Below, in pieces: positions 4,333 through 21,317 of a stretch of 64,000 nucleotides of DNA (positions are counted from its first letter, which is position 1; each line of letters starts with the position of its first letter). The stretch is taken from contig JBAZGN010000001.1 in NCBI GenBank assembly GCA_041652815.1, forward strand, positions 33,363-97,362, in the 5' to 3' direction. Source of the stretch: Candidatus Omnitrophota bacterium. GTDB lineage: Bacteria > Omnitrophota > Gorgyraeia > Duberdicusellales > 4484-171. The notes below the pieces were generated by a model that ran no database searches, was not told where the DNA came from, and saw only the letters and a program-made list of their open reading frames with translations. A program made the translations under genes and the position numbers.

Positions 4333-4707
4333 CTACTTGCTATTCGTTGCCGTAATCGTTGCTGTTTCTACCCTGTTTGTCGAACTTGTTGTTACTGCAA
4401 AACCTTTTTCCCCTTCGTAGCAAAAATCAGTAGTTGAACGGTTCGAATGGCCTTTAGAATTAAAAGACACGATTTTACCCACGTTATTATTAGTTGCTGC
4501 CGGAGAAACCCTATAACCGCTCTCCGGAAGAGGTATCGAAAAGGAAGACGAAAAATATTGGCTGCCTAACTGGTCTGCGGTATCCTTGAGTTTCCCTTGA
4601 ATGCTTCTGTTAAAATAATACTGCATTATCATAAGGGCAGCTGCCGTAGAAGCGATAATCATAGTATATTCCAATATTGCTTGAGATTTTCTAAATGCCT
4701 TTTTCAT
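4333..4707 (-). CDS. Flp/TadE-like prepilin
   Basis: MKKAFRKSQAILEYTMIIASTAAALMIM...: K-S-Q-A-I-L-E-Y plus hydrophobic helix. Confidence 0.55.
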   Translation of the reverse strand: MKKAFRKSQAILEYTMIIASTAAALMIMQYYFNRSIQGKLKDTADQLGSQYFSSSFSIPLPESGYRVSPAATNNNVGKIVSFNSKGHSNRSTTDFCYEGEKGFAVTTSSTNRVETATITATNSK

Positions 4708-4740
4708 ATAATTTTTACTTTGCTTACACTTTATATAAAT

Positions 4741-5067
4741 TTACCAAAGATGCAATTGCCTTTTTTTATATGAATTATATGAACCCCTGACTGCAGTCGA
4801 TGTTGTGGGATGGTCCCACCCCGGTGTGGTCGATTCATTAGTGCTTACATTTGATATATAAAGCTCATAATCTTTAGTATCAGCTACCTGATATTGTTCC
4901 CCCAGCTGATCGCCATAAAGCTGAATTCTGCCTTGCATGCTGCGCCTTATGTATACCTGCATAATAAGCGCAACACCTACCAGAACCGCGATAAGCAGGC
5001 TATATTGCAGCGTTGCCTGGGCTTTTCTATAAGTATTCATAATAATATTATACACTTCTTTTTTCAA
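4741..5067 (-). CDS. Flp/TadE-like prepilin (Gln at the conserved Glu position)
   Basis: ...YRKAQATLQYSLLIAVLVGVALIM...; paralog of neighbours, E at +5 replaced by Q. Confidence 0.5.
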   Translation of the reverse strand: MKKEVYNIIMNTYRKAQATLQYSLLIAVLVGVALIMQVYIRRSMQGRIQLYGDQLGEQYQVADTKDYELYISNVSTNESTTPGWDHPTTSTAVRGSYNSYKKRQLHLW

Positions 5068-5084
5068 AAATAGCTGATGATTCT

Positions 5085-5438
5085 TTACTGCGCCGTGGTT
5101 CCCTTGTCTTTACCTACCCATTTTTCACTCTCAAGAGATTTTATCTTACGAGTTGCATTCTGTGTTTGCTTCATACCGCCGATGTTAACTACAGTTTGCG
5201 TACTGTAACCTTTGGTAGTAGCTTCAGTCATCGGTGCAGTCAGGTTCGAAACCATTTCATCCTGCCGAAAGGTTAAACCCGGCGAATATTGCTCGCCTAT
5301 TTCATCAGCTGACGCTTGTAATCTTCCCTGAACGCTTCTTTTTAGATAATTCTGCATTGTAAGGAGCCCGCCTACTACAACGCTTATAAGAAGCGCGTAT
5401 TCCAATGTGCTTTGCGCTTGTCTAAGTTTTGTTAACAC
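5085..5438 (-). CDS. Flp/TadE-like prepilin
   Basis: MLTKLRQAQSTLEYALLISVVVGGLLTM... Confidence 0.55.
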   Translation of the reverse strand: MLTKLRQAQSTLEYALLISVVVGGLLTMQNYLKRSVQGRLQASADEIGEQYSPGLTFRQDEMVSNLTAPMTEATTKGYSTQTVVNIGGMKQTQNATRKIKSLESEKWVGKDKGTTAQ

Positions 5439-5457
5439 TTTAGCACCTCCTTTTAAA

Positions 5458-5763
5458 TTATTTACTTTCTTGTGATGTCCAAACAGCAGTACTGGTATCG
5501 GTTGTAGTTATCCAAGGTTCGTCACTGCCGGCTGTAACATAATTTTCTGTTCTTACACGATTTTGCGACTGCTCTGTAGTCGTTTTAATGCCGGTTGTAG
5601 GTTCATATTCCTGGTTGTTTGAAAGCACCATTGCTGCATCGTGAATTCGTGCCTGAATAGCGCGCTTTACTTCAGCCTGTATGCCCATCGCTGCAGCAAC
5701 AACAAGCGAAAGAAGTATCGCGTATTCCGCTGTAGATTGCGCTTTTCTTAATTTTCTTAACAT
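5458..5763 (-). CDS. Flp/TadE-like prepilin
   Basis: MLRKLRKAQSTAEYAILLSLVVAAAMG... Confidence 0.55.
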   Translation of the reverse strand: MLRKLRKAQSTAEYAILLSLVVAAAMGIQAEVKRAIQARIHDAAMVLSNNQEYEPTTGIKTTTEQSQNRVRTENYVTAGSDEPWITTTDTSTAVWTSQESK

Positions 5764-5788
5764 TTTATTACACCTCCTTTAAGTAAGC

Positions 5789-5977
5789 TTAGTTTCCGCC
5801 TACGTTGCTACGAAAATTAGTAGATGCATCCTCAATAGTTCCTGATGCTTCGCCAAACATCTTATCCACTGCTTTTGTCACAACGCCGTTTTTCCCTGTA
5901 GCTGCAACTACTGCTGCAACTATTGCCGAAAGGACCAGTATATACTCAAGGATACTTTGAGCTTTTTTCACTACCAT
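5789..5977 (-). CDS. flp: Flp-family pilin (62 aa)
   Basis: MVVKKAQSILEYILVLSAIVAAVVAATG...; size and architecture typical of Flp pilins. Confidence 0.6.
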   Translation of the reverse strand: MVVKKAQSILEYILVLSAIVAAVVAATGKNGVVTKAVDKMFGEASGTIEDASTNFRSNVGGN

Positions 5978-5999
5978 TTCAATTCACCCCCCCCTTATT

Positions 6000-6158
6000 T
6001 TATCGGACACCATTCATTGGATCGCTTAAGTCAGCTTTTATATGATAAAATCTTGCATTGATTGAACGAATTATATATCCACTCATTGTAGCAAGAGAAA
6101 TAGATACTATAGCGATTAGAAGTGCGTAGTCGAGAAAACTTTGAGCTTTTTTTAACAT
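6000..6158 (-). CDS. flp: Flp-family pilin (52 aa, below ORF-track cutoff)
   Basis: Manual translation of the minus strand: MLKKAQSFLDYALLIAIVSISLATMSGYIIRSINARFYHIKADLSDPMNGVR. Same N-terminal motif as neighbours (D replaces E). Confidence 0.5.
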   Translation of the reverse strand: MLKKAQSFLDYALLIAIVSISLATMSGYIIRSINARFYHIKADLSDPMNGVR

Positions 6159-6161
6159 AAT

Positions 6162-6341
6162 TTATTGTGCATATTTACCTATGCCGGCCTGTAAATTGGT
6201 TAATCCCCTTTTTACACCTATACGCAAAACTCCTGTTCCAACTACAATAGCCACGATTATTGCCCCTACAACAATTAAATATTCAATGATAACCTGCGAT
6301 TTAAGATATCCAATTTTGATTTTTTTACCTGTTAGTTTCAT
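6162..6341 (-). CDS. flp: Flp-family pilin (59 aa, below ORF-track cutoff)
   Basis: Manual translation: MKLTGKKIKIGYLKSQVIIEYLIVVGAIIVAIVVGTGVLRIGVKRGLTNLQAGIGKYAQ. Confidence 0.5.
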   Translation of the reverse strand: MKLTGKKIKIGYLKSQVIIEYLIVVGAIIVAIVVGTGVLRIGVKRGLTNLQAGIGKYAQ

Positions 6342-6477
6342 TTAACTCCTGGGCTAAATGCCTCATCCTGATATCAACTTCTCTTCTTATATATGTACTC
6401 ATTGCCGTCAACGCAAGAGAAACAATCACTATTAGGCCTGCGTATTCAATTATGCTTTGTGTTTTTTTATTTTTCAT
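6325..6477 (-). CDS. flp: Flp-family pilin (50 aa, below ORF-track cutoff)
   Basis: Manual translation: MKNKKTQSIIEYAGLIVIVSLALTAMSTYIRREVDIRMRHLAQELNETNR; its 3' end overlaps the next pilin gene by 17 nt. Confidence 0.45.
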   Translation of the reverse strand: MKNKKTQSIIEYAGLIVIVSLALTAMSTYIRREVDIRMRHLAQELNETNR

Positions 6478-6489
6478 ATACTTTAAGAA

Positions 6490-6651
6490 TTACTCTGTAT
6501 CTAACATTTGATTGGCAACTTTATTCTGATAACCTGAAAAGTTTGTGCCGTTTGTTGCAAAATACGCTGCTACGCCAATTGCTGCAAACATAACGGCAAC
6601 GCATATATATTCGATAATCGACTGCGTTTTTTTAAGTTTTTTGTTTTTCAT
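6490..6651 (-). CDS. flp: Flp-family pilin (53 aa); first gene of the pilin array
   Basis: Internal start of the 137-aa ORF at MKNKKLKKTQSIIEYICVAVMFAAIGVAAYFA...; AGGAGG RBS 7 nt upstream. The longer ORF upstream of this Met is the GC-rich structured leader, not coding. Confidence 0.55.
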   Translation of the reverse strand: MKNKKLKKTQSIIEYICVAVMFAAIGVAAYFATNGTNFSGYQNKVANQMLDTE

Positions 6652-6663
6652 GCCTTTCCTCCT

Positions 6664-6714
6664 AAAAATAAAAAACCGGACTGCCGACTCATAGTGAGAC
6701 GTTCGGCAGCCCGG
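6664..6714 (-). terminator. Intrinsic terminator hairpin within the pilin leader (minus strand CCGGGCUGCCGA-loop-UCGGCAGUCCGG followed by UUUUUU)
   Basis: An 11-12 bp GC-rich stem plus U6 tract, ending about 20 nt before the RBS of the first pilin gene. Confidence 0.5.
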
Positions 6715-6940
6715 TTGTCCTATTAAAACAGGGACCCGTAACTTAAACTTGTTTTGGACCCGTGGCTTTGCTCCTCCCGACTTTGCGCCGGGACTTGCCC
6801 TTTCGTCGCCTCCTGTACCATATAAGTATACCATATTAAAACTTAAAAAATCAACCCAGTCCTGATTATTTTTGAAACCGCTTACAATTAAATTAGCTAA
6901 CAAATACGGGTATTTTTAGGCTGGGCTTGATTAAATTTTA
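6715..6940 (-). promoter_or_regulatory. Structured 5' leader (riboswitch/attenuator-like) plus putative promoter upstream of the pilin array
   Basis: Locally GC-rich, non-coding. Minus strand carries GCAAAG twice and GAGCAAAGCCACGGGUCC; extended -10-like TGTATAAAAT around 6935-6946 (minus strand). Confidence 0.3.
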
Positions 6941-7096
6941 TACAATTTATTTATATACTGGCGGGTAATTGGGGCAAGTAAGCTACGCGGCCCAAAAACT
7001 AAGGCTGATTCTACTGGCATACGCAGGCTAAAAGCCCACGTTTTTTGAATACTTCTGGCTCGGCTATCGCCAGGCCGTAAGCCCGGCAGGTTAAAC

Positions 7097-8521
7097 TTAA
7101 ACCGCGAAAACCCTTCTCTGCCCTATGTAAAGACTGGCGTTATTGATTTCTTTCTTTGTTTCGAAAGATAAACTCTTCATTATTATTTTACAAAAATCTT
7201 TTCCTAAAACGTACTGGCCGAAGCTGTTCGTAAAAGATGCTACCCCGAATTGCTCTTTAAATACCTCAACAAGAATGTCGGTGATTTGCTTAAAATCCGA
7301 TTCTTTTTCCAAATTCAAAATATCGGGCATATATTTTACCAAATTCTTTTTGCTTTCTTTATTAAGAAAATAGTTCTCTATTGTTTTCATATCGCCTAAA
7401 AATACCCTTTCCATATAAGGCCAGACGAGTAAGTATTTTTTTAAAAGGTAAGCTAAGTTGGTTTTCCGGTCAGTTAAAACTGCCCAATTCGGCAGCATTC
7501 TTTCTTTGGTTTTTGTCAAAATATTATTCAGTATAACCGCTTGGTTTCCTTTTGGCTGTGAAAATCTTGTAAGCACGGGCACATAGAAAGTTTCACTCTC
7601 TATAAGCAGCAACCTCTTAAATCTCTTGGCTTTTTCCAAAAATGCTGCGCCTTTATTCAATATTTTTGGATAATACCCCATTAAAAAAGCAGGGTTAGAT
7701 AAATTACATTCTATTCTTTCTAATACTTTACCTTTTTCATCCAATAGCTCTATTTTGTTAATTCCGGAAGATATGCCGCTTATAAAGCTTATAGTAAGCG
7801 TTGAAAGATAATCAAAGCTTTTAGTATATCCGATAATTATAGTTTTATCTTTCAAAAGCCGGGAGACTGAAGCCCTTACATGATATAAAGGCATAAAGAA
7901 ATCATCGATATTGCAGGGACCGTCCCAAAGTGTGGTTAATTTTGCATCGGAAAATCCGATTGTCTCATTTAGAAAATAAAACTTTACCGTTGAAACGAGT
8001 TTAAGCCTTTCTTTTATTTTCTCTAAGCTTATTGCCGGTTTATAATTAACCGTTCGTAAAGAAAAGTATTTTACGCTTTTTGCGGGATAAAAAAAACATT
8101 CGCAAAGCCGTAAAAACCCCGGCCTTTTTACATTTTTCTCTACCTGGCCGCCGATATAAGAAGAAAAACTAAACATTATTATAAGCTTCTTTATCAAATT
8201 TACGCTTAAATGCGGGAAATAGGCGCGTAATTCTTCTTTTAAAAAATCATAGAAACCAACCTGCGAATCTATGGCCTTCAGTAACAATAGCCCGCAGTCT
8301 TGAATGGATTTACCCTGATACAAAAGAAGATGTTTTTTCCTGCCGCGCGCGGATTGTGTGCCTTTTGTTTTTAAAACAGTACTGATTGTACTTTTAGAAA
8401 TGTTTAGCTGGTGTTTTTCTTTTAAAAGCCGGGATAATCCTCTTACGCCAAGATGGGGGTTTCTTTTGGCTTCAGATAGAATGAGATTCTTGTTGATAGA
8501 ATTTGTCTTAACTCGCATCAA
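7097..8521 (-). CDS. Hypothetical protein with N-terminal helix-turn-helix (transposase-like N-terminus; no clear DDE)
   Basis: N-terminus ...ILSEAKRNPHLGVRGLSRLLKEKHQLNISKSTISTVLKTKG resembles HTH domains of IS630/Tc1-type transposases; remainder unassignable by eye. Confidence 0.3.
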   Translation of the reverse strand: MMRVKTNSINKNLILSEAKRNPHLGVRGLSRLLKEKHQLNISKSTISTVLKTKGTQSARGRKKHLLLYQGKSIQDCGLLLLKAIDSQVGFYDFLKEELRAYFPHLSVNLIKKLIIMFSFSSYIGGQVEKNVKRPGFLRLCECFFYPAKSVKYFSLRTVNYKPAISLEKIKERLKLVSTVKFYFLNETIGFSDAKLTTLWDGPCNIDDFFMPLYHVRASVSRLLKDKTIIIGYTKSFDYLSTLTISFISGISSGINKIELLDEKGKVLERIECNLSNPAFLMGYYPKILNKGAAFLEKAKRFKRLLLIESETFYVPVLTRFSQPKGNQAVILNNILTKTKERMLPNWAVLTDRKTNLAYLLKKYLLVWPYMERVFLGDMKTIENYFLNKESKKNLVKYMPDILNLEKESDFKQITDILVEVFKEQFGVASFTNSFGQYVLGKDFCKIIMKSLSFETKKEINNASLYIGQRRVFAV

Positions 8522-8530
8522 TTAAATAAT

Positions 8531-8693: not shown

Positions 8694-9761
8694 TTAAGCC
8701 ATCTCCGAGAAAATCTTTTCATCAAGAAGCCCTAACCGGTTAAATTCAGCAAAAAAGCGGGGATACATTCTCATTACTGTCCTAAATTTTCCTTTTATTC
8801 TTCCGTCCGGGGTTCTACCTTCGCGCCTAAAAATAAATAAATCCTGAAGCGCCACTTCGCCGCGTTCGACTCCACGCGCCTCAGATATATGGGTTATCCT
8901 TCTTACCCCGTCAGGGAAACGTTCTTGCTGGACTATTACATGCAAGGTATTACCTATCATTCTTCTTATTTCTTCAATCGGCAGCTTAATTCCGCTTGAT
9001 AAAATAAGGGTCTCCATACGACTGGTCACTTCCTGGGGGCTATTAGCATGGATTACGGCGAGAGTTCCGCGATGGCCGGTTGACATTGCCTGAATCATAT
9101 CGAGCGCTTCCGGGCCTCTGACTTCACCGACGATAATTCTATCCGGCCGCATACGAAGAGCATTTCTTATCAAATCACGCAAAGTAACTTCGCCTTTTCC
9201 GTCTTTATCCGGTGCGCGCGTTTCCATAGGCACAAGGTTTTCCTGATGCAAAATCAATTCCGCAGTATCTTCAATGGTTACAACCCGCTCCTGCTCAGGA
9301 ATATGATAAGAAAGCATTTCCATTGTTGTGGTTTTTCCTGAACCGGTGGCTCCTGAGAAAAGCACGTTTACTTTTCCGTGGATACAGGCAATTAGAAAAT
9401 CCGCCATTTTTTTGCTCATTGTGCCTTCCTTCATAAGGTCTTCCAGGCTATGAAGGTTTCGGTTAAATTTCCTGATGGTTATTGCTGTGCCGCGGCGGGA
9501 AAGCGGGTAAGTTATAAGATTCATACGCGAGCCATCCGGAAGGGCAACGTCGCCGAAAGGGTTATAGTAAGATATGGGCTTACCGGCTTTAGCGTAAAAT
9601 TCCTCTATGATATCGTTTATATCTTCTTCCGTAAAAGTCAGCTCAATCTTACTCTTGACGCCGCCTATTTCCAGAAAAGTATCTTTGGACCCATTTATCA
9701 TAATTTCGGTAATTTTGGGGTCCTTCAGCAATTGCCTTATTTTATCTGCGCCTAATCCCAT
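8694..9761 (-). CDS. cpaF: CpaF/TadA-family pilus assembly ATPase (short form, ATPase core only)
   Basis: Walker A GATGSGKTT, Asp/His boxes; T2SS/T4SS-E ATPase fold; 355 aa. Confidence 0.8.
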   Translation of the reverse strand: MGLGADKIRQLLKDPKITEIMINGSKDTFLEIGGVKSKIELTFTEEDINDIIEEFYAKAGKPISYYNPFGDVALPDGSRMNLITYPLSRRGTAITIRKFNRNLHSLEDLMKEGTMSKKMADFLIACIHGKVNVLFSGATGSGKTTTMEMLSYHIPEQERVVTIEDTAELILHQENLVPMETRAPDKDGKGEVTLRDLIRNALRMRPDRIIVGEVRGPEALDMIQAMSTGHRGTLAVIHANSPQEVTSRMETLILSSGIKLPIEEIRRMIGNTLHVIVQQERFPDGVRRITHISEARGVERGEVALQDLFIFRREGRTPDGRIKGKFRTVMRMYPRFFAEFNRLGLLDEKIFSEMA

Positions 9762-9857
9762 ATCTTCCTCACTTCGTTCGGCAGAAACCAGATTACAGTT
9801 TATAGAAACCAGAAAAAATCAGCTCTGGTTTCTGTACTCTGGTTTCCGGTTTCTGTC

Positions 9858-12023
9858 TTAATCTTTCGGTACAAATATTTCCCTCGATAAATCAACACCC
9901 CTGGCTCTTATTTCATCATAGAAAGTAGGTATATAGCCAAGCGGGGTGAAATAACCTATAACATTACCTTCCGCATCAACACCGGTTTGCCTATGCGTAA
10001 ATATATCCTGCAAATTGATATGCGTTTCATCAAGCATGCCGACGACTTCGGTAATCCCGGTAACCTTTCTTGAACCGTCGGACAAACGCGCAGTTTGTAC
10101 TATAACATGTATAGCTGAAGCAACTTGCTCTCGTATAGCACGAATGGGCAGCTCTATCCCCGCCATAAGAATCATACTGTCAAGCCTTATCAAAACATCA
10201 TGAGTTGAATTAGCATGGATTGTAGACATACTCCCATCGTGGCCTGTATTCATAGCCTGCAACATATCTAAAACTTCCTTTCCTCTTACTTCGCCAACGA
10301 TAATTCTATCCGGCCTCATACGCAAAGTGTTTCTGAATAAATCTCTTATTGTGATTTCTCCTTTTCCTTCTATGTTTGGGGGACGAGCTTCAAGCCGTAT
10401 CCAATGCCTCTGGTTCAATTTAAGTTCTGCCGAATCTTCAATTGTAACTATACGCTCCCGCTCTGGTATACAGGACGAAAGTATATTTAAAAATGTAGTT
10501 TTACCCGAACCGGTGCCGCCTGAAACCAGTATGTTTTTTCTCGATTTAACCGCAGCTTCCAGAAAAAGCGCCATATCCGGGGTAAGACTTGCGAAACGGT
10601 TAATCAAGTCATCCATTGTCCAGCGTTGACGGGCAAATTTTCTTATGGTAAGTGTTGGCCCCGTCAAAGATAAAGGCGAAATTATTGCATTAACACGCGA
10701 GCCGTCAGGAAGCCTGGCATCAACATAAGGAATTGATTCGTCAATGCGCCTGCCAAGCGGCGCAAGTATCCTTTCTATCACTATACGCACTTGTTCATTA
10801 CTCGTAAATTTTTTGCTGGTTAATTCAATTTTTCCAAATCTCTCTATGTATATCTGGTCTTTATTATTAACCATAATTTCCGTAACCGTTACGTCTTTAA
10901 GTAGGTCCTCAAGCGGCCCAAGGCCCAAAGCCTCTTCTACTATTTCTTTAGTTATTTTTCTCCTGATTTCCGTTGAAGCAATAAAGCCCCCTGCTTCTTT
11001 ACTGATAACGTTTGAAACAATTTTTTCTGCTTTTGCCCGTAACTCAGCCATTTTCTGGGCGCTGCCGGCATACATTTCAACCTGCACTCTTTTTAAATCA
11101 AGCTCTTCGATGAGCTTTTCATGCACTGTTTTTTTAAATTTTATTATTTGGTCTTCTTCTTCAAGGAGAGTGGTTTTCTCTGCTTTTTCCATCACGCCCA
11201 CGCGCTGCCAGAAAACTTCCTCTCCTTCAAAAGCCTCTTTAACCACTCTTACTTCACTTAAAGTTTTATGGCTTATATAAATATCTTTTCTTTCGATTAT
11301 ATCTTTGGCGAGCTTTTGTATGGCGCTTGTAAATTTACATTGCGGGTTGTCTATAATCAGAGGCACTCCACGGTTAACGGCAAGGCCGGCGGCTTTTCCC
11401 TCCGAGGGAATGAGCCCGATAATTTCCGAAGGAAGCAGTGTTTTTATTTCCTGCCAGGTTATTGCCCCTTTGCTTTCCGCGCGGTTAAGCACTATTTTTG
11501 TCATCGTCAGCGGAAAACCAAGGCTCTGGAGAGTATCCAACAACCACTGTGTTTGATAAACCGATAAAATATCCGGCGTAAGCACAAGGCTTATAAGGTT
11601 AGAACTTTCAAGGGTTGCTATGAGATTATCCGTTAAGCTTGAGCCTGCATCTATTATAATATAATCAAAATCATTCCATATAATCGATATGAAATCTTTC
11701 ATCATTTGCGGAGTAAAAGATGTACGCTGGGACATTTTGAAGATTGCCGGAAGAAATACCAGATTGCCCCTATAAATTGCGCTGTAATTATCTATGGTTC
11801 TTTTTTTCTCTTTAAAATCTTTAAGGTAATCTAAGAGGTTGAAAAGGCAGTATTTACTCTCAACTCCCAGCAGCTTTGACGTTGCCTGTGGAGCTCCTAA
11901 ATCAAAATCCAGCAAAAATACTTTTTTGTTTTGCAGGGAAAGTTGAACGGCAAGATTTAAGGAAACAAGCGTTTTTCCTACGCCGCCCTTGGTGCTAAAG
12001 AAAGAAATTACCTTCGCCTCCAT
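9858..12023 (-). CDS. Fusion protein: TadZ/CpaE-like ParA/MinD ATPase domain (N) + full CpaF/TadA secretion ATPase (C)
   Basis: N-terminus FFSTKGGVGKTLVSLNLA (deviant Walker A of MinD/ParA/CpaE); C-terminal half has GGTGSGKTT and the CpaF core; 721 aa. Confidence 0.7.
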   Translation of the reverse strand: MEAKVISFFSTKGGVGKTLVSLNLAVQLSLQNKKVFLLDFDLGAPQATSKLLGVESKYCLFNLLDYLKDFKEKKRTIDNYSAIYRGNLVFLPAIFKMSQRTSFTPQMMKDFISIIWNDFDYIIIDAGSSLTDNLIATLESSNLISLVLTPDILSVYQTQWLLDTLQSLGFPLTMTKIVLNRAESKGAITWQEIKTLLPSEIIGLIPSEGKAAGLAVNRGVPLIIDNPQCKFTSAIQKLAKDIIERKDIYISHKTLSEVRVVKEAFEGEEVFWQRVGVMEKAEKTTLLEEEDQIIKFKKTVHEKLIEELDLKRVQVEMYAGSAQKMAELRAKAEKIVSNVISKEAGGFIASTEIRRKITKEIVEEALGLGPLEDLLKDVTVTEIMVNNKDQIYIERFGKIELTSKKFTSNEQVRIVIERILAPLGRRIDESIPYVDARLPDGSRVNAIISPLSLTGPTLTIRKFARQRWTMDDLINRFASLTPDMALFLEAAVKSRKNILVSGGTGSGKTTFLNILSSCIPERERIVTIEDSAELKLNQRHWIRLEARPPNIEGKGEITIRDLFRNTLRMRPDRIIVGEVRGKEVLDMLQAMNTGHDGSMSTIHANSTHDVLIRLDSMILMAGIELPIRAIREQVASAIHVIVQTARLSDGSRKVTGITEVVGMLDETHINLQDIFTHRQTGVDAEGNVIGYFTPLGYIPTFYDEIRARGVDLSREIFVPKD

Positions 12024-12079
12024 ATTATATATTATACCTTATTTCGCAGGAAATTTCTACTCCAAGCGGAGTTTGCGGG

Positions 12080-13690
12080 TTAACGCTTATTTTTTTCGCG
12101 GTAAACTATCGGCACGTCAATATTCAATTCCCGTATATCGCTGTCTGGCGGAAACGGCGGGAATGTCAAGCTTCTTACAAGCTTTACTGCGTCGGTATCG
12201 AATATCCTATGGCCGGAAGATTTTGTAATTTTCACGTCTTTAATGTCACCTGTTTGGTTGATATTTAATTTCAAAACAACCATTCCTTCCCAGCCCGTCT
12301 GCATAAGCGAAGGCGGATATGAAATATTGTTTGCTATTTCATCCTGCACATCCAATACGTAATTTTGTAAATTGTTAGGTATTATTCCGGTATATAGTTC
12401 CAGGTTCTTTTTCTCCGATACTTCTTTTACTTCGGGAATTTCCTCTTTATCATCCAACGGTATAACTTTGGGGGTAAGCGATATTACCAATTCTGTTTGC
12501 GAGTTTTGAAATTCCTTTGACCGGAATAACGCTCCAATTACCGGTAAATTACCCAAAGCAGGCAGTTTGTCTATGCTTTCGGAGTCTTTCTGTTTTATGA
12601 GCCCTGCTATAAATATCGTATCTCCTGATTTAAGATTCAAAACGGTTTCCGCAATTCTTGTAGTAAATGCCGGAACCCTCGTACCTGAAACCGTTATGGC
12701 ATTTACCAAATCCAAGGCGCTTACTTCCGCACGCATACTTGCATAAATCTTTTTATTATCGCTTGAAACTATCGGCCTTATTTTTAAAATGACTCCGTAT
12801 TCCTTATAAGAAACACTGACTGAAGTTCCGGCTGAACCCGTAGTTGAACCGCTTAGATACGGCACTTCTCCACCTACCGACAGTTTAGCTTCCTCGCCGC
12901 TTAAACATAATAACTTTGGCCTGGACAATTCTTTGCCTTTGCCGTCACGAACAAGCATATCAATTCTTGCGGTTAACGCATCTCTTGACCAGCTTCCCAT
13001 ACCCCAGGCAGCAGTCCATGGCTTTTGAATGTTAAGTGTGGTTGACACGCCGGTGGCACTTGCAGCAGGAGCAACATAAGGCTCCTGGCGGATTTGTATA
13101 TATTCCTGCCATTTTACACCGAGCCTGTCGAGGTCGCTTTTGTTTAATTCAAGGATGCGGGCTTCTATTTCAACCATCTTAGTTTCTTTCTTTACGGTCA
13201 AAATGTTGTCAACCCTGTCCTTAAAAGACTCAACAACCTTGTCTATTTGTTCTTTCTCAATACTGGTTATGTCTCCTGCGATAATTATTTTTCCTGTAGC
13301 TTCATTTTTCTTTAAAACCACGTTGCTTATTTTCAAATCTCGCCTTATAAGCTTCTCCAGCCGCATCAATACCCTGTCGAGGTCTTGCGAATATACGGTT
13401 ATATAATAAGTCTTTTCCCCGTCTTTATTCCAGATGGTTAGCGTTGTTTCGCCGGGCTTTTTAGCTACAATTACTATTTCTTTATCCGATACTTTTGTTA
13501 TATCAGCTGTTTCAGGGTCGCGCATGGAAACTCTCTGAGGGAAAGAAACTGCTATTGCCATAGCCTCTCCGGAAACTAAAGTATATTCATCTTCGGCTAA
13601 TGGCTCAAAAATATTTTGCGAAAAGGAAAATGAATTGGTTAGTAAGAAGACGATAAAACTTATATGTATGAATATTTTTCTTAGCATCAA
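12080..13690 (-). CDS. cpaC: CpaC/RcpA-like secretin with an additional C-terminal TonB_C-like domain
   Basis: Secretin core ...GDTIFIAGLIKQKDSESIDKLPALGNLPVIGALFRSKEFQNSQTELVISLTPKVI. C-terminal YPPSLMQTGWEGMVVLKLNINQTGDIKDVKITKSSGHRIFDTDAVKLVRSLTFPPFP matches the TonB C-terminal domain pattern. Confidence 0.75.
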   Translation of the reverse strand: MMLRKIFIHISFIVFLLTNSFSFSQNIFEPLAEDEYTLVSGEAMAIAVSFPQRVSMRDPETADITKVSDKEIVIVAKKPGETTLTIWNKDGEKTYYITVYSQDLDRVLMRLEKLIRRDLKISNVVLKKNEATGKIIIAGDITSIEKEQIDKVVESFKDRVDNILTVKKETKMVEIEARILELNKSDLDRLGVKWQEYIQIRQEPYVAPAASATGVSTTLNIQKPWTAAWGMGSWSRDALTARIDMLVRDGKGKELSRPKLLCLSGEEAKLSVGGEVPYLSGSTTGSAGTSVSVSYKEYGVILKIRPIVSSDNKKIYASMRAEVSALDLVNAITVSGTRVPAFTTRIAETVLNLKSGDTIFIAGLIKQKDSESIDKLPALGNLPVIGALFRSKEFQNSQTELVISLTPKVIPLDDKEEIPEVKEVSEKKNLELYTGIIPNNLQNYVLDVQDEIANNISYPPSLMQTGWEGMVVLKLNINQTGDIKDVKITKSSGHRIFDTDAVKLVRSLTFPPFPPDSDIRELNIDVPIVYREKNKR

Positions 13691-14535: not shown

Positions 14536-14627
14536 TAGAAGCGGATTACCGCGGATGTTTACGCGGATTTACGCACGGTAATTTGCTTGCGTTTATCCGC
14601 GTTTAGATCCGCGGATATCCGCTTCTA
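14536..14627. repeat. 'gcggat' palindromic element, complete copy without cargo (arm1 tagaagcggattaccgcggatgtttacgcggat; arm2 atccgcgtttagatccgcggatatccgcttcta)
   Basis: Two inverted arms about 35 bp each separated by about 25 bp; the same arms recur at 20843-20885/21282-21320, 27536-27578/27975-28013 and 32673-32847. Confidence 0.75.
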
Positions 14628-15515
14628 TTTTAACAAATCTTCTGATTTTTCTACGCGCGCTTTCGCCTTAAAACTTTCGATTAATTTATTAACCTCTTGT
14701 TCGGTTTTGTCTTCCCGCAATGCGTCTTCAAGTTTTTTCTCTACGTCAGCGAAAGAAACCTCTCCACCGCCCTTTGCTTCTTCAACTTTTATTATATAAT
14801 ATTTGCCGTCATCGGCCTTGAAATAATTTGACAATCTTCCCGGCTCAACCGTAGCAATAGCTGCCCAAAATTTTGCGTTTTTTTGCAAATCTTCAAGCGA
14901 GGGAGTTAGCCAGCCGCGGTCTCCCCCCTTATCCCTGGAAGGCGCAACAGATTCCTGGCGGGCTATTTTCTCAAAATCTTCGCCCGTGAGTAACCTAACA
15001 TAAATATTCTTTGCATCAGCCTCGGAATTTACTGCTATTTCTCTAATCTTTATTTGGCGCGGTTCTTTAAAAAATTCCTTGTTTTTATCGTAAAAAGCGC
15101 GGACTTCTGCGTACGAAACGGTTACGCTTTTTTCTATATCTTTTCTAATTTTTGCCGCAAGCAGCGTGTCGCGCGTATCCCTCAATGCCCTTGCGATATC
15201 ATCACTTTTATCAATTCCTTTTTCTGTAGCTATTTGAGCCAGTATTTGGTTCTTGATAAGGTCGTTAAGAAACTTAATTTTGAAGTCTGTGCTGTTTACG
15301 TTTATGTTTTGCTGGGTAGCTATTGGCTCTATGCTTCTTAAATAATTTTTAAAATCGTCCAAGCCTATCGCCCAACTATTTACTCTGGCGAGCAGCGCGC
15401 CGTGAATAGCCACTTCTTCATTTGTTTCGGCTGGCTTCGGCGGAAAAACTTTATCACAGCCGATAAAAACTGCGATAAGAAATATAAGTGTAACAACTGG
15501 AAACGCCTTACGCAT
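14625..15515 (-). CDS. PrsA/SurA-like parvulin-type peptidyl-prolyl isomerase lipoprotein
   Basis: Lipobox-like FIGC; PpiC-type motif region IKIREIAV...ESVAPSRDKGGDRGWL. Confidence 0.6.
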   Translation of the reverse strand: MRKAFPVVTLIFLIAVFIGCDKVFPPKPAETNEEVAIHGALLARVNSWAIGLDDFKNYLRSIEPIATQQNINVNSTDFKIKFLNDLIKNQILAQIATEKGIDKSDDIARALRDTRDTLLAAKIRKDIEKSVTVSYAEVRAFYDKNKEFFKEPRQIKIREIAVNSEADAKNIYVRLLTGEDFEKIARQESVAPSRDKGGDRGWLTPSLEDLQKNAKFWAAIATVEPGRLSNYFKADDGKYYIIKVEEAKGGGEVSFADVEKKLEDALREDKTEQEVNKLIESFKAKARVEKSEDLLK

Positions 15516-15840
15516 TGAACCTCCTCTATAGTTATAAGTTTATCAATATAACCTTATTAAATCAAGATTTTTTTTAAAAATAAATCCGGCCAGGAAACTC
15601 ATCCCGTTTAGAGATTTATTCCTAACAGGATAAGCTGCATAATTTTTATCGTTGCCTTTGGGGCAAATTTAGTTTAGAATATAGCAATGAACCCAGCCCT
15701 TCCAAGGTGTTATACTTATCCAAACAGTATAGTAAATTTGTTAGGAACAAGGCTGGTTAGTTTAGGCTGCAAAAATAATTTTCAGAAATTTACCGTTTGA
15801 AATAATTCATAAAACACTACTCGAAAAAAGGAAGGGCTGG

Positions 15841-16425
15841 GTGAAAAAACCAGTAAAGATAACTCTCGATACCAGTATTTTCGTAAATCCCGATTCAAGA
15901 GTATTTTTTGGCCAAACCCCGGAGAATGCTTTGAAAAATTTTCTGGAAAAGCTGGAAAAACAAAATGATGTTTCCTGCTATATGCCTCCATCGGTTTATG
16001 AAGAACTGATGAAGTTTATGGAAAACAAACCCTCGCTCAAAGAAACGCTTCTTATCCAGAAGAAGCCGCCGGCCTCTTATGAAACGCCAATTCCTTCTAT
16101 ATTTCTGTATGAATTTATTGAAGAATTCCGGGCAAGAATAAATAAAGGCTTACGCATTGCCGAAAAATACGCAAGGCAGGAACTAAAAATAACGCCGCCG
16201 AAAGAAAAAACAGAAGAAGAAATAATAAAACGTTTAAGAGAAGAATACCGAGTGGCTCTTCGGGAAGGCATTATTGACAGTAAGGAAGATTTCGACCTTC
16301 TGCTTTTAGCTCGTGAGCTTGGCTCATTTCTAGCTACCTCAGACCAGGGCCTTGTAAAATGGGCACAAAAACTAGGCATACCCGCGCTATCCGCCGAGGA
16401 ACTAAAAGAAATTCTGGAGCATTAA
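15841..16425 (+). CDS. PIN-like protein resembling the HARP family (protein-only minimal RNase P, Aq_880-like)
   Basis: N-terminus ITLDTSIFVNP..., central YMPPSVYEEL, FLYEFIEEFRARINKGLRIAEK, C-terminal LATSDQGL; 194 aa, the size of HARP proteins. GTG start. Confidence 0.5.
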   Translation: MKKPVKITLDTSIFVNPDSRVFFGQTPENALKNFLEKLEKQNDVSCYMPPSVYEELMKFMENKPSLKETLLIQKKPPASYETPIPSIFLYEFIEEFRARINKGLRIAEKYARQELKITPPKEKTEEEIIKRLREEYRVALREGIIDSKEDFDLLLLARELGSFLATSDQGLVKWAQKLGIPALSAEELKEILEH

Positions 16426-16449
16426 ACATCGGCCTTCTTTTTTAATAAT

Positions 16450-18402
16450 ATGAAAAGCTATAAATTGACGCCTTTTTTTTCGACAACCGAAATAAATTAC
16501 GAAGAAAACCTAAACCCACAACAGTTAAAAGTCGTAAAAGAAGCTGACGGCCCTTCGCTTGTATTAGCAGGAGCAGGAAGCGGTAAAACCCGTGTGCTGA
16601 TTTACAGGCTTGCCTATTTACTCCAAAAAGGAGTTCCAGCCGAAAATATACTGCTTGTAACTTTTACAAACAAAGCTTCCAAAGAAATGATTCACCGGGC
16701 TGAAGTGCTCCTTAAATCAAGTTTATCCGGGCTTTGGGCTGGGACATTTCATCATGCCGGAAATATGATTTTAAGGCACGAGGCGCAAACTATAGGGTAC
16801 TCTGCAAACTTCACTATTATAGACAGGGAAGATTCAAAAGATTTGCTTGAGGATTGTATAGAAGAATTAGGTTATACAAAAGACGCAAAACTTTTTCCCA
16901 AAAAAGATATCATCTCAAATATTTACAGCATTTGCGTAAACTCGCTCAAGAAAGTAGAAGATGTAATTTGCGAAACCTACCCTCACATCGAGGAATATTC
17001 ATCTCATATCAAAAAAGTCCTTGCGCGGTATGAACAAAAGAAAAAACAAAGCAACACCATGGACTTTAATGATTTACTTAAATATTGGCTGGAAATTCTT
17101 AAGATAGACGCGCTTTGCAAAAAATATTCCGGAAATTTCAAATACATACTCGTTGATGAATATCAGGATACAAATCATATTCAGTTTGAAATAATCAAGC
17201 GCCTGGCATCAATCCATAAAAACATATTGGTCGTCGGAGACGACGCACAATCAATATATTCTTTTAGGGGCGCTGACATAAATAACCTTTTGGATTTTCC
17301 AAAAACTTTTGAAGGCGCAAAAATTTACAAGCTTGAAATAAATTATAGGTCTTCACCGCAAATTCTTTCATTAGCAAATAATATAATCACGCATAACATA
17401 AACCAGTTCCCCAAAGCCTTAAAGGCAGTTAAGGGCGCGGCGGAAAAACCACAAGCAGTAAAAACAAAAGATGTTTACGCGCAGGCAAAATTCGTAGCTC
17501 AGAAAGCGCTGGAACTGCACAACCAAGGCATACCGCTTCGCGAAATAGCCGTACTCTTTCGTTCGCACTTTCAGGTGTTGGAGCTGGAAATAGAACTAAT
17601 GAAAAGAAACATCCCCTATATTATGCGCGGTGGTGTGCGCTTCTTCGAACAGGCACACATAAAAGATGTTATGTCTTATCTTAAAATAATAAATAACCCC
17701 AATGATGAATTATCGTTTAAACGGGCGGTTTCGTTATATAAAGGAATAGGCAGAAGTTATGCTACAAAAATATGGAAAATGGTAGTTACCGAAAAAAAAT
17801 CCATAGATGAGGTGATAAAGGCGCTTCCCAAAAGACAGCAACAGGGCTTTCGTGAGTTTTCAAAAGTATTTGAAAAAATCAGGACTATTGAAAAACCCCA
17901 AAATGCCGTAAGAGAAATTTTATCTTTCTATAAAGACTACTGCTATCTTTCATTCGATAATCCCGACGACAGAATCCTTGACCTGGAAGAACTTGCAAAA
18001 ATGGCAGCGGATTATCCTACCGTAAGAAGGTTTCTTACTGAATTAAGTTCATTTGAAGAATTTAAAGGCGAGTCAATGCTGTCGGCAAACGAAAAAAGAG
18101 AATTCCTTACGCTTTCAACAATACATCAGGCAAAAGGCCTTGAGTGGGAAGCTGTATTTATCGTAGGCTTTAGCGATTATGAATTCCCCCATCCTAAAGC
18201 GCTGGGAAAAGACGAAGCCCTTGAAGAAGAAAGAAGGCTCTTTTACGTTGCAACCACAAGGGCTAAACAAGTGCTTTACATAACCTATCCGGAAGCAAAA
18301 TATACTTTTAAAAACGGGGTTATAATCTGCCGGCCGTCGATGTTCCTTAATGAAATACCCTTCTCGAATTACGAAGAGATGTATGTTGAGGATGATTTTT
18401 GA
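16450..18402 (+). CDS. UvrD/PcrA/Rep-family SF1 DNA helicase
   Basis: Motifs AGAGSGKT, TFTNKASKEM, VDEYQDTN, VGDDAQSIYSFRGA, TIHQAKGLEW, VATTRAKQVLY. Confidence 0.8.
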   Translation: MKSYKLTPFFSTTEINYEENLNPQQLKVVKEADGPSLVLAGAGSGKTRVLIYRLAYLLQKGVPAENILLVTFTNKASKEMIHRAEVLLKSSLSGLWAGTFHHAGNMILRHEAQTIGYSANFTIIDREDSKDLLEDCIEELGYTKDAKLFPKKDIISNIYSICVNSLKKVEDVICETYPHIEEYSSHIKKVLARYEQKKKQSNTMDFNDLLKYWLEILKIDALCKKYSGNFKYILVDEYQDTNHIQFEIIKRLASIHKNILVVGDDAQSIYSFRGADINNLLDFPKTFEGAKIYKLEINYRSSPQILSLANNIITHNINQFPKALKAVKGAAEKPQAVKTKDVYAQAKFVAQKALELHNQGIPLREIAVLFRSHFQVLELEIELMKRNIPYIMRGGVRFFEQAHIKDVMSYLKIINNPNDELSFKRAVSLYKGIGRSYATKIWKMVVTEKKSIDEVIKALPKRQQQGFREFSKVFEKIRTIEKPQNAVREILSFYKDYCYLSFDNPDDRILDLEELAKMAADYPTVRRFLTELSSFEEFKGESMLSANEKREFLTLSTIHQAKGLEWEAVFIVGFSDYEFPHPKALGKDEALEEERRLFYVATTRAKQVLYITYPEAKYTFKNGVIICRPSMFLNEIPFSNYEEMYVEDDF

Positions 18403-18878
18403 GAAGAAGAATCCAGGCTAAAAATATCCAGAATAACATCCGTATTGTTTGAATCTTCAAAAACCAATTCCATTTCAATATCAACAATATCTTCTTTGGC
18501 TGCGTCAATTCGGCCTTTATTTATAATAGGTAACAACGAAAATGCGGCAATTATGACTAAAGTAACAACGGCAATCTGCGGCCTGTAGGCTAAGGCAGAT
18601 ATCATGCCTTGTACGATAAAAACTATTCTTTCCATCAGGCTAGAAATAACCGATACTGGCTGAGTTTGCGTTTCTATTTGTTTTAAAATATCATTTAAGC
18701 TATCGCGCGAAATATCCACTTTTTCTTTTTCTGCAATACAAAGGAATTTATTTAAGCTTTCATAATTTTTGCTGCAGCGGCTGCAATGCAAAAAATGTTC
18801 TTCGATAGGCTTTCTTTCTTCTCCCTTTATTTCGTTATAGAAAAACAATAGCATTTGTTTCTTTGAAAGGCATTTCAT
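18369..18878 (-). CDS. Zinc-dependent (ZAS-type) anti-sigma factor with one TM helix
   Basis: HFLHCSRCSKNY contains HxxxCxxC; TM segment VTLVIIAAFSLLPI. Start taken at MKCLSKK (GGAGG RBS); directly downstream of the ECF sigma gene. Confidence 0.55.
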   Translation of the reverse strand: MKCLSKKQMLLFFYNEIKGEERKPIEEHFLHCSRCSKNYESLNKFLCIAEKEKVDISRDSLNDILKQIETQTQPVSVISSLMERIVFIVQGMISALAYRPQIAVVTLVIIAAFSLLPIINKGRIDAAKEDIVDIEMELVFEDSNNTDVILDIFSLDSSSQKSSSTYISS

Positions 18879-18945
18879 GATATAACCTCCATTAATGAGC
18901 ACATCATTTTTTCAAGTGTATCAACACGTAGAAAAAATGATAGTG

Positions 18946-19064
18946 CGAATTAACCCCCCACCACTTTTAGTGATGAGTAGTTTTTGTAAAACATTTCTTT
19001 TCTCTAAAACCAACCGCGTCTTACAACAAGATGCTTTCTAAAAGTGGTGGGGGGGTCGAATTCG
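18946..19064. repeat. Inverted repeat with 24-27 bp arms (cgaattaaccccccaccacttttag / ctaaaagtggtgggggggtcgaattcg) and a 67-bp spacer, between the sigma and anti-sigma genes
   Basis: Read directly from sequence; a duplicate copy sits at 25639-25757. Confidence 0.7.
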
Positions 19065-19107
19065 GCTACGCAAATTTTCTGCGCTTCTGGCTTGAAAATT
19101 TGCTGCC

Positions 19108-19659
19108 TCATTCGACCTCCATCTTTTTCTGCAAGGCGCCTACGGCTCGTTTTAAATGTGTCTTTACTGCGCTCTGAGAGCAGCCTATCGCGTTACTTAT
19201 CTCTGCCATGCTTAGCCCCTCATAGTGCCTTAATATAAATACATTTTTTTGCCTGGCCGGCAAATTTGAAATTTCTTTTCTTAATAATGCCTGCCTGTCT
19301 TTAAGGTCTAACTCTTCTTTCAAAGAAGCATTTTCAATTTTTGGCTCGCTTTTATATCTTGTGCCAAGATTAAATATACTGCGGCGCCGGCGTAAAAAAT
19401 CCAACGAAGTATTTATGCTTATCCGATAAATCCAGGTAGAAAGCTTTGAAGCATTTTTAAAATATTTAAGGCCGTTATGTATTTTTAAAAGCGAAACCTG
19501 CAAGGCGTCTTTTGCATCTTCCATATTTGCCAAATAACGGTAAGAAATATTTAGAATATCCGAATATATAAGCTTTGCCAGTTCAGAAAAGGCACTACTC
19601 TCACCGCCTATAAAACTATCCGCCAGCTTTTTTATATCTTCCTCTTTATGTTTAAGCAC
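19108..19659 (-). CDS. ECF (sigma-70 family group IV) RNA polymerase sigma factor
   Basis: Region 2 and region 4 features; C-terminal HTH LSMAEISNAIGCSQSAVKTHLKRA. Confidence 0.75.
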   Translation of the reverse strand: MLKHKEEDIKKLADSFIGGESSAFSELAKLIYSDILNISYRYLANMEDAKDALQVSLLKIHNGLKYFKNASKLSTWIYRISINTSLDFLRRRRSIFNLGTRYKSEPKIENASLKEELDLKDRQALLRKEISNLPARQKNVFILRHYEGLSMAEISNAIGCSQSAVKTHLKRAVGALQKKMEVE

Positions 19660-19667
19660 GTTTTATT

Positions 19668-20150
19668 TTATAAATTGTTTTCCATTGAACGATTCTTTCT
19701 GCGGTCTTGAATTCTATTTTTAAGCTCTTCATATTTCTGCGGGTCGTTTTCTTTAAGATAATTAAGCCGCTCTTTAAGATGCTCTCTTCTTTTGGCTTTT
19801 AACTCTTCATATTTTTGGGGATTGTTTTTCTTAAGTTCCGCAAGGCGGCTTCTTATCTTCGTTCTTGCCTCCTGTATCAGAGCTTTAAACTTTTCCGGGT
19901 CATTTTTTTCCAGAGCTTCAAGCTCTTGTTTTTTTGCAACAAGCTTTTCTTTTAAAATAGCTTTAAACTTTTCTTTATCGGTTTTTCTAAGCTCAATAAG
20001 CTCTTTTTTCTCGCTTTCCGGAAGCGCTTCAAAAACCAAAACTCTGGCTATTGCTTTTTCCCGGAAAGTATTTTTAGCATAAACGCTGTTTCCAAGAATA
20101 AAGATAACCATAAACAGAACCAGACAGATTCCAAAATATCTGATTTTCAT
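19668..20150 (-). CDS. Secreted coiled-coil repeat protein (periplasmic stress-protein-like)
   Basis: Signal peptide, then charged repeats (ENDPQKYEELK, KNDPEKFKALI, KNNPQKYEELK); immediately upstream of the ECF sigma gene in the same operon. Confidence 0.4.
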   Translation of the reverse strand: MKIRYFGICLVLFMVIFILGNSVYAKNTFREKAIARVLVFEALPESEKKELIELRKTDKEKFKAILKEKLVAKKQELEALEKNDPEKFKALIQEARTKIRSRLAELKKNNPQKYEELKAKRREHLKERLNYLKENDPQKYEELKNRIQDRRKNRSMENNL

Positions 20151-20199
20151 ACTATCACCTCGAATATTTAGACGGTTTAAAAGCGTAAAAAGTCTACCC

Positions 20200-20270
20200 C
20201 GTTACAGATAACAGAGTACAGAATACAGAATAATTTTTTATTTCTTCTCTGTTCTCTGTATCTATCGCGA
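20200..20270. repeat. Palindrome of 'acagagtacagaataca / tctctgttctctgtatct' units at the folE 3' end; duplicate copy at 26893-26963
   Basis: Read directly from sequence. Confidence 0.6.
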
Positions 20271-20822
20271 AGTAGAAATTAAGCTTAAAGCTTCCTGGCG
20301 GGTCTTTTGGTTTGTAAGAAAGATTCCCCTGACAACGGAAGTTGTAGTTAATGTCCCCGGTTTCTTCACCCCGCGCATTGACATGCAAAGATGCTCCGCT
20401 TCAATAACTACCATTACGCCTTTTGGTTTTAGTTTTTTCATAATTACATCGGCTACTTCTGTAGTTAAACGTTCCTGCACCTGAAGGCGCTTTGAAAGGA
20501 CATCCACAACCCTTGCTATTTTGCTTAAACCGGTTATGCGCTTATCGGGAATATAGGCAACGTGCGCTTTTCCTATAAAGGGAAGCATGTGGTGCTCGCA
20601 CATCGAATATAACGGTATTCCCTTCAAAAGTATAATTTCATCGTGCTTTTGCTCAAGGATAACTTCCAACTCTTCTTCTGCGTCCTTGAACTGCCCGCTT
20701 AAAATTTCTCCATACATTTCAGCTACCCGCGCAGGCGTTATCGCGATATCTTTCTTTGTTAAATCTGCGCCGAGTGCTTCCAAAATAAGCTTAACGCCTT
20801 GTTCGATTTTTTTCTTATCCAT
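20262..20822 (-). CDS. folE: GTP cyclohydrolase I
   Basis: CEHHMLPFIGKAHVAYIP, GLSKIARVV, RLQVQERLT, AEHLCMSMRGVKK; start taken at MDKKKIEQ (AGGAG RBS). The longer ORF extends into the palindromic element. Confidence 0.85.
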   Translation of the reverse strand: MDKKKIEQGVKLILEALGADLTKKDIAITPARVAEMYGEILSGQFKDAEEELEVILEQKHDEIILLKGIPLYSMCEHHMLPFIGKAHVAYIPDKRITGLSKIARVVDVLSKRLQVQERLTTEVADVIMKKLKPKGVMVVIEAEHLCMSMRGVKKPGTLTTTSVVRGIFLTNQKTRQEALSLISTSR

Positions 20823-20865
20823 CTTTTTGTACTCCTGTTTTATAGAAGCGGATTTCCGCGGATAT

Positions 20866-21273: not shown

Positions 21274-21317
21274 ATTTCTGTGCGTTCATCCGCGTTTAGA
21301 TCCGCGGGAATCCGCTT

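Follow-up and report, generated by a model that had tools for sequence, protein, structure and literature searches.

The genome of a Candidatus Omnitrophota bacterium contains an array of Flp-like pilin genes whose leader appears to be a class I cyclic di-GMP (c-di-GMP) riboswitch. It would act at the level of transcription, switching the Tad/Flp array ON, and we assign this reading a probability of roughly 0.8. The DNA that we analysed, referred to here as the window, is a stretch of 64,000 nucleotides (nt) from this organism (assembly GCA_041652815.1, contig JBAZGN010000001.1, positions 33,363-97,362 of the forward strand). All coordinates are window positions, and the leader, the aptamer, the terminator, and the pilin genes lie on the minus strand. 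An earlier sequence-only reading of this DNA had suspected a relative of the c-di-GMP-I (GEMM) RNAs here, and the covariance-model check for RF01051 bears this out with a match above the curated threshold and beyond chance. In a scan with Rfam 15 at curated thresholds, the c-di-GMP-I family (GEMM-I, RF01051) was matched at 6702-6809 over its full length (model positions 1-87 of 87), with 42.9 bits for a gathering score of 35 and E-values of 4.7e-05 (whole window against all of Rfam) and 2.6e-07 (local). This was the sole gathering-level Rfam match in the 64 kb. GEMM-II (RF01786) gave no match at its gathering score in the window, nor at E<=10 in 6500-7100, and the weak matches to STnc240, a snoRNA, and EBER2 within 6500-7100 (E>4) were set aside as chance. 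The parts of the aptamer are as follows, with ligand-contact and tertiary-pair positions in the numbering of the Vibrio cholerae aptamer Vc2:

6696-6812, minus strand: c-di-GMP-I (GEMM-I) aptamer, from the RF01051 match, the fold, and covariation
6812-6807 (GAGGCG) and 6805-6804 (CG) with 6705-6704 (CG) and 6701-6696 (CGUCUC), minus strand: P1 helix, from the predicted fold
6793-6775, minus strand: P1a hairpin with a GCAAA pentaloop
6769-6767, minus strand: AAA junction, read directly and from the model alignment
6767-6708, minus strand: P1b hairpin with a long distal extension (AAAACA/UGUUUU)
6799, 6769, and 6706, minus strand: equivalents of the ligand contacts G20, A47, and C92, from the RF01051 alignment
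6772 and 6715, minus strand: tertiary-pair positions 44 (A) and 83 (A), from the RF01051 alignment
6732-6739, minus strand: second copy of ACGGGUCC, in the distal loop of P1b (first copy at 6763-6756)

When the nascent RNA, from its predicted start to the end of P1, was folded without constraints, the minimum-free-energy (MFE) structure was the exact GEMM-I architecture, at -36.9 kcal/mol. For comparison we used orthologous loci collected through CpaF matches; here and below, counts over genomes and metagenomes describe samples rather than censuses. The AAA linker between the two hairpins, which is virtually invariant in GEMM RNAs (PMC1950547), is kept in the window and in 11/11 orthologs, and the same is true of the G at the position-20 equivalent (6799). 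The roles of G20, A47, and C92 in ligand contact have been described for Vc2 (PMC4744006, PMC6140456), and all three bases are canonical in the window. GEMM-Ib RNAs, which sense cyclic GMP-AMP (cGAMP), carry an A at the equivalent of G20 (PMC6140456). Because position 20 is a G and the contacts are canonical, the expected ligand should be c-di-GMP and not cGAMP.

Both the base composition of the leader and its short motifs were as the sequence-only reading had described them. GC content is 0.56 at 6700-6799, compared with about 0.3-0.35 in the flanks, and direct inspection of the minus-strand sequence from 6300 to 7300 found GAGCAAAGCCACGGGUCC as well as the two copies of GCAAAG, one of which lies in the P1a loop and the other at the P1a/P1b junction. 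The leader also falls within a mechanically called open reading frame (ORF) of 137 amino acids (aa) at 6490-6903, which starts with TTG at 6903 and shares the reading frame of the pilin gene. We nevertheless argue that the leader is non-coding, because it shows single-base indels relative to L011, the closest relative among the orthologous loci, together with RNA covariation; the claim of a locally GC-rich, non-coding leader therefore stands. The duplication of ACGGGUCC had also been singled out. Both copies are real, and the second can stand in for the first as partner of the P1b 3' strand, giving a decoy fold of -34.9 kcal/mol compared with -36.9 kcal/mol for the aptamer and a pair probability of 4-20%. 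However, the duplication is not kept in L011, the nearest relative, which has ACTGGTTT where the window has the second ACGGGUCC. We therefore rejected the repeat as a functional second switch element, even though the decoy is only 2 kcal/mol worse, and the duplication is probably incidental.

The expression platform follows directly on the aptamer and shares RNA with it:

6670-6716, minus strand: intrinsic terminator and expression platform, from RNAfold and the orthologs
6716-6703 with 6698-6695, minus strand: terminator 5' arm
6691-6674, minus strand: terminator 3' arm
6675-6670, minus strand: U tract of the terminator
6649-6663, minus strand: Shine-Dalgarno sequence AGGAGG (6663-6658) and ATG (6651-6649) of the first pilin gene, read directly and arranged in the same way in the orthologs

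Within the terminator, CCGGGCUGCCGA (6714-6703) pairs with UCGGCAGUCCGG (6687-6676), which is followed by U6 (6675-6670). By RNAfold the hairpin spans 6716-6674, with 14 outer and 4 inner pairs and -28.0 kcal/mol, while a simple terminator scan detects just its upper part. A strong intrinsic terminator just before the ribosome-binding site (RBS) had been noted before, and its arms, U6, the AGGAGG, and the ATG were all confirmed; the distance to the RBS had been put at about 20 nt and is in fact 12 nt from the end of the stem to AGGAGG. The aptamer 3' strand (CCGGGCUGCCGA...GUCUCA) doubles as the terminator 5' arm, and since P1b and P1 both draw their 3' strands from this arm, only one of the two structures can form at a time. 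The MFE fold of the full leader contains the terminator, at -58.4 kcal/mol, and enforcing the aptamer gives -44.2 kcal/mol. There is no separate anti-terminator in the leader, as the aptamer itself is the anti-terminator. The proposal of a conditional attenuator with exclusive pairings thus held when the leader was folded, since the terminator shares its 5' arm with P1b and P1 and is not constitutive. As the two structures exclude each other, ligand binding should permit read-through, which makes this an ON switch, and high c-di-GMP most likely turns pilin transcription on. The sequence-only reading had named no direction for the response; the ON sign is read from the anatomy of the leader.

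The same layout, consisting of a palindrome, a promoter, an aptamer, an overlapping terminator, and a pilin array, was found in at least 11 further Candidatus Omnitrophota loci. The aptamer reaches the Rfam gathering level in L011, L012, L003, L008, L009, and L025, while in L004, L006, L007, and L019 the same element falls below the gathering score although its core is intact, as the hairpin loops carry insertions of up to about 90 nt that defeat the threshold. L013 also has the element, interrupted there by the contig end. The L004 aptamer (13145-13354) carries about 60 extra nt after P1a, before the junction is reached, and its P1b loop has an insertion of about 87 nt; L003 (9783-9939) and L019 (13080-13224) have P1b loop insertions of about 70-80 nt; the aptamer of L006 lies at 12088-12191. 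A hairpin and U tract with the CCGGGCUGCC strand as 5' arm is present in all 11 of the complete orthologs, with energies from -13.8 to -30.8 kcal/mol.

Given eight full aptamers aligned with MAFFT and left unedited, RNAalifold recovered P1, P1a, and P1b, with compensatory changes in 9/25 pairs. On a hand-trimmed alignment of 11 sequences, 97% of the cells of the aptamer were paired and 10 pairs were compensatory, which was matched by 0/500 shuffles, and slid controls of the aptamer pairing stayed below 50% paired. For the terminator the same alignment gave 85% paired cells and compensatory changes in 5 of 12 pairs (matched by 1/500 shuffles), and RNAalifold on untrimmed terminator segments agrees with this covariation. 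Read from these alignments, the compensatory changes support both the aptamer and the terminator. In L007, one position has changed in all three partners at once, namely the shared strand, the 3' arm of the terminator, and the 5' strand of P1b. This is exactly what selection on both alternative folds would yield.

Several further observations were made in these and other loci. L007 (about 8364-8527) has a U at the C92 equivalent (GUCGAA for GCCGAA) with a compensated terminator arm, and transcription from a second TATGGTATATTA promoter-like motif, located after its terminator and before the pilin ATG, would bypass the riboswitch. A second GEMM-I aptamer in L025 (20592-20686, 60.6 bits), which has a terminator of its own, precedes the gene for a non-pilin protein that is predicted to be secreted, suggesting that the c-di-GMP riboswitch regulon in this group exceeds the pilins. 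GEMM-I aptamers also lie directly upstream of Flp-type pilins in the metagenome contigs L150, L188, L192, L097, L134, L158, and L195, which apparently belong to unrelated lineages, and this suggests that the pairing is recurrent in nature. L150, for example, encodes MKSLAQKVQRFLVSEDGPTAVEYAVML, and its pilin has the classical G/PTAVEY motif.

Two further elements lie upstream of the aptamer:

6825-6854, minus strand: promoter with -35 TTGATT (6854-6849), an 18-bp spacer, and extended -10 TGgTATACT (6833-6825), from a promoter scan with TG extension
6873-6886, minus strand (palindrome): operator-like palindromic site TGTAAGCGGTTTCA, its centre about 60 bp upstream of the predicted start

The promoter motif T(A/G)TGGTATA occurs in 11/12 related loci, with TATGTTATA in L009, and it always lies 11-18 nt before P1. 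Transcription is predicted to start near 6818, about 6 nt before P1. As the conserved promoter is at 6854-6825, the 5' untranslated region is about 170 nt long, and there is little in it beyond the riboswitch. The sequence-only reading had placed an extended -10 at TGTATAAAAT (6943-6934); this motif exists, but it lies in DNA that fails to align between the window and L011, and we rejected it as the promoter. The conserved sequence shared by the window and L011 has a sharp upstream edge at 6886 and runs to the pilin gene.

With 0.12 matches expected in the 64 kb, the palindrome TGTAAGCGGTTTCA is the sole one there to TGWAANCGNTNWCA, an operator consensus of the LacI/cre type. Of the 12 related loci, 11 have a comparable palindrome before their pilin promoter, in many cases TGAAAACGTTTTCA. 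The distance from its centre to the -10 falls into one of two ranges, 47-49 or 57-58 bp, which differ by one helical turn. A class-I-type activator bound near -60/-70 would be spaced in this way, and we regard TGTAAGCGGTTTCA as a candidate transcription-factor site outside the riboswitch proper. The neighbouring 474-aa protein (7097-8521, minus strand) has a sub-threshold N-terminal match to HTH_Tnp_Tc3_2, a helix-turn-helix (HTH) family, as its only hit. In at least 13 related loci a homolog (25-74% identity) occupies the space that separates cpaF from the riboswitch-pilin leader, and because of this constant place we rejected the idea that the ORF is a transposase insertion; the HTH protein is instead a candidate regulator for the adjacent palindrome. 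In L021, a short-repeat array with GTCAAAC...CTACG (12600-12900) lies downstream of the 474-aa homolog, where the riboswitch otherwise sits.

In the mechanism that we propose, transcription would start at about 6818 from the conserved extended -10 promoter, which probably also needs a factor on the palindrome at about -60. The first ~120 nt fold as the three-helix GEMM-I aptamer, as the computed structure and the covariation show, and the following ~25 nt would provide the 3' arm of the terminator, its 5' arm being the RNA of the P1b and P1 3' strands. Without ligand, the terminator, which is predicted to be about 14 kcal/mol more stable, would displace the aptamer, and transcription would stop at the U tract (6670-6675). 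When c-di-GMP is bound between G20 (6799), A47 (6769), and C92 (6706), it would lock P1 and P1b so that the terminator cannot nucleate and RNA polymerase can enter the pilin genes, as the anatomy of the leader and the established behaviour of GEMM-I RNAs suggest. High c-di-GMP, produced for example by the GGEEF cyclase encoded at 37151-38326, would then lead to pilin synthesis and to surface or host attachment.

A number of points weigh against a ligand-responsive switch, and the most serious concerns a single tertiary contact. In GEMM-I RNAs, a C44:G83 pair keeps the two hairpins parallel, and the window has A44 (6772) and A83 (6715) instead, which appear as two core mismatches in the RF01051 alignment. 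This Watson-Crick pair has been described as highly or universally conserved (PMC3764141, PMC4744006), and neither the G83C mutant of Vc2 nor the C44G/G83C double mutant bound ligand by isothermal titration calorimetry (PMC11705072). In our metagenome sample, in which 125 GEMM-I matches were listed and 120 could be parsed, C:G was found in 117/120 and A/A in 0/120. The RF01051 score of 42.9 bits is modest beside the 56.9 bits of L011, and the A/A mismatches account for part of this gap. Docking of a GNRA tetraloop into a receptor in the second hairpin is seen in about half of GEMM instances; in the window, P1a is capped instead by the pentaloop GCAAA, which has the form GNR(N)A, and the internal loop of P1b (CCAAAAC / UUAAUAGG) is only partly like the CCUAAG / UAUGG receptor. 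On the side of the analysis, the trimmed alignment was curated by hand, with loops and three bulged bases removed, so that the unbiased control for covariation is the RNAalifold run on the unedited alignment, which covers the aptamer only, and the position of the transcription start is a prediction from the promoter.

These points could be taken to mean that the aptamer is crippled or retuned, with A44/A83 having abolished or greatly weakened c-di-GMP binding, so that the leader is a constitutive attenuator, or responds only at very high ligand, and control rests with the palindrome and the promoter. The energy gap of about 14 kcal/mol between the terminator and the aptamer fold would fit this explanation, as would the Vc2 mutants and the rarity of departures from C:G. 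We consider it unlikely, however, as all helices and every other conserved position are intact, and a constitutive -28 kcal/mol terminator before the major pilin genes would silence a large and intact locus. The orthologs are also informative here, with C:G in six, A-U in L009, and U-A in L006; L019 shares A/A with the window, and L004 gave no clear reading. No ortholog has just one of the two positions changed. A/A seemingly arose twice, since L019 is a distant locus and the nearest relatives of the window, L011 and L173, both carry C:G. Paired changes at 44 and 83, together with A/A in two separate lineages, suggest a tolerated alternative and not decay. Membership in RF01051 is retained without C44:G83, because this pair is a highly conserved tertiary contact and not the definition of the family. 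Judging from these comparisons, A/A may be a tolerated variant that possibly shifts ligand affinity; it probably weakens helix docking and, more speculatively, would raise the c-di-GMP level needed for switching. It is mainly because of A44/A83 that our confidence in a ligand-responsive function is no higher than stated at the outset.

The identity of the ligand and the sign of the response can be questioned as well. GEMM-I scaffolds switch specificity by single-base changes (PMC6140456), and the model of a variant class, c-di-GMP-I-GGC (RF03167), aligns over the same stretch with 39.6 bits, so that the ligand might be another cyclic dinucleotide (3',3'-cGAMP, for instance, which GEMM-Ib RNAs sense), or the RNA might belong to a variant class. 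This is very improbable given that position 20 is a G and not the A of GEMM-Ib (PMC6140456), that the GGC score lies below the gathering score of 59, for which reason we rejected that class, and that position 47 is an A, not a G, and C92 is a C. Just as hard to credit is an OFF response, or control at the level of translation alone, in which the ligand would favour termination or mask the RBS. GEMM-I OFF switches do occur in other bacteria, and in the MFE fold of the full leader some of the AGGAGG region is base-paired to a CCCUGU that precedes the terminator. However, this RBS pairing is seen in the terminator state only, and with the terminator 5' arm formed by the P1b/P1 3' strand and no separate anti-terminator present, a stabilised aptamer must remove the terminator. 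The preferred reading is thus still a c-di-GMP-I riboswitch that turns pilin transcription on. A more ambitious version of it, which we regard as doubtful, holds that A44/A83 is a selected, convergent alternative to C44:G83 that retunes the switch to a higher c-di-GMP threshold or to different docking kinetics, and that it would form, together with the helically phased palindrome, possibly bound by the 474-aa HTH protein, a two-input AND gate for the deployment of Tad pili in ultra-small, possibly predatory Omnitrophota.

The genes that the switch would control are the following:

4333-6651, minus strand: nine short Flp-like pilin genes, at 6490-6651, 6325-6477, 6162-6341, 6000-6158, 5789-5977, 5458-5763, 5085-5438, 4741-5067, and 4333-4707, from their shared motif and genomic context

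These pilin-like ORFs share a K/R-rich N-terminus, the motif (K/T/A)Q(S/V)xxEY, and a hydrophobic helix. The motif is the Flp-type E+5/Y+6 pattern, with A/T/K-Q replacing the usual glycine (classical G/xxxxEY). Neither Pfam nor NCBIfam gave a confident name for the pilin-like proteins, with a weak match of one ORF to Pfam Flp_Fap (E=0.068), and the designation Flp-like is a putative one that we base on motif and genomic context. No strong minus-strand terminator was found within the array, which we infer to be one operon. A TadE/G-like protein is encoded downstream of the array, and further pilin-like and TadE/G-like genes continue on the same strand down to about 172. Upstream, also on the same strand, are the genes for the 474-aa HTH protein, CpaF, a ParA/TadZ-like-CpaF fusion, an RcpA secretin, and RcpC/CpaB. 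The link to pilus genes drawn by the sequence-only reading is thus borne out, as the leader stands before a Flp-like array in a Tad locus. CpaF is 90-98% identical to metagenome-assembled proteins of Candidatus Omnitrophota among the matches listed. Within the Tad locus (8694-13690, minus strand), the fusion, a 721-aa ParA/MinD (TadZ/CpaE-like) and CpaF protein, adjoins the second, stand-alone CpaF, and the RcpA-type secretin has a C-terminal TonB_C domain.

A possible source of the ligand is also encoded in the window. The GGDEF cyclase that had been proposed is a GAF-GGDEF protein at 37151-38326, with a Pfam GGDEF match of 3.1e-46, an intact GGEEF motif, and an RxxD I-site, and the intact GGEEF motif suggests that the organism can make c-di-GMP. 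Elsewhere in the window there is a perfect tandem direct duplication (about 14617-21324 and 21310-28017) with a period of 6693 bp, identical in its interior and with mismatches at the edges only. It covers about seven genes, including a gene for a peptidyl-prolyl isomerase (PPIase)/SurA-like protein at 14625-15515, and could be a recent event or an assembly artefact.

The Omnitrophota, most of them ultra-small, are uncultured, and it has been proposed that Tad pili are their apparatus for host attachment or predation; the main genomic study of the phylum makes no mention of c-di-GMP or riboswitches (PMC10066038). A conserved c-di-GMP ON riboswitch before the pilin array would provide a concrete signal for the timing of pilus making, with a predicted signature in metatranscriptomes, where short RNAs ending near 6670 would contrast with read-through transcripts. 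RNA biology as such gains little. One minor point is the natural A/A swap of a pair whose G83C mutation abolished measurable binding in Vc2, and another is that at least four orthologous copies are missed by the Rfam threshold owing to large loop insertions.

A paper of 2007 (PMC1950547) already established the aptamer class together with its terminator-overlap platform, its ON logic, and its connection to pili, and what is new is the setting in Omnitrophota Tad/Flp pilin arrays. In that discovery paper, the 5' side of a terminator overlaps the 3' side of P2 in 78/322 cases and the ligand was predicted to raise expression, and pilus genes, including cpaA, were among the GEMM-regulated families (PMC1950547). 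The window leader has the family (RF01051), the platform logic, and the pilus gene theme in common with these terminator-overlap GEMM-I RNAs (Weinberg et al. 2007, PMC1950547, Fig. 2B type). It differs from them in its place in Candidatus Omnitrophota directly upstream of a Flp-like pilin array, in a long P1 (6+2 bp) that is also part of the terminator arm, in a P1b with a distal extension of roughly 37 nt, and in the replacement of C44:G83 by A/A. The GEMM-Ib cGAMP riboswitches of Geobacter (e.g. Gs1761) share the fold and the Rfam clan with the window aptamer, but have an A at the G20 equivalent where the window has a G (PMC6140456).

Vc2, the Vibrio cholerae GEMM-I aptamer upstream of VC1722 (3IRW/3MXH), is like the window aptamer in having two parallel hairpins on a closing P1, and G20, A47, C92, and the AAA junction are the same in both. 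However, Vc2 has a GAAA tetraloop, an 11-nt receptor, and C44:G83, where the window has a GCAAA pentaloop, the degenerate receptor CCAAAAC / UUAAUAGG, and A44/A83, and the expression platforms of the two differ. The nearest functional analogue is Cdi2_4 of Clostridioides difficile, a c-di-GMP-II riboswitch upstream of pilA1, where c-di-GMP reportedly relieves premature termination in the pilin leader and high c-di-GMP is said to lead to pilus production and aggregation (Bordeleau et al. 2015). Cdi2_4 has a class II aptamer (RF01786, which had no match in the window) and controls a type IVa pilus in a Gram-positive bacterium, whereas the window leader has a class I aptamer before Tad/Flp genes, yet the regulatory logic of the two is the same.

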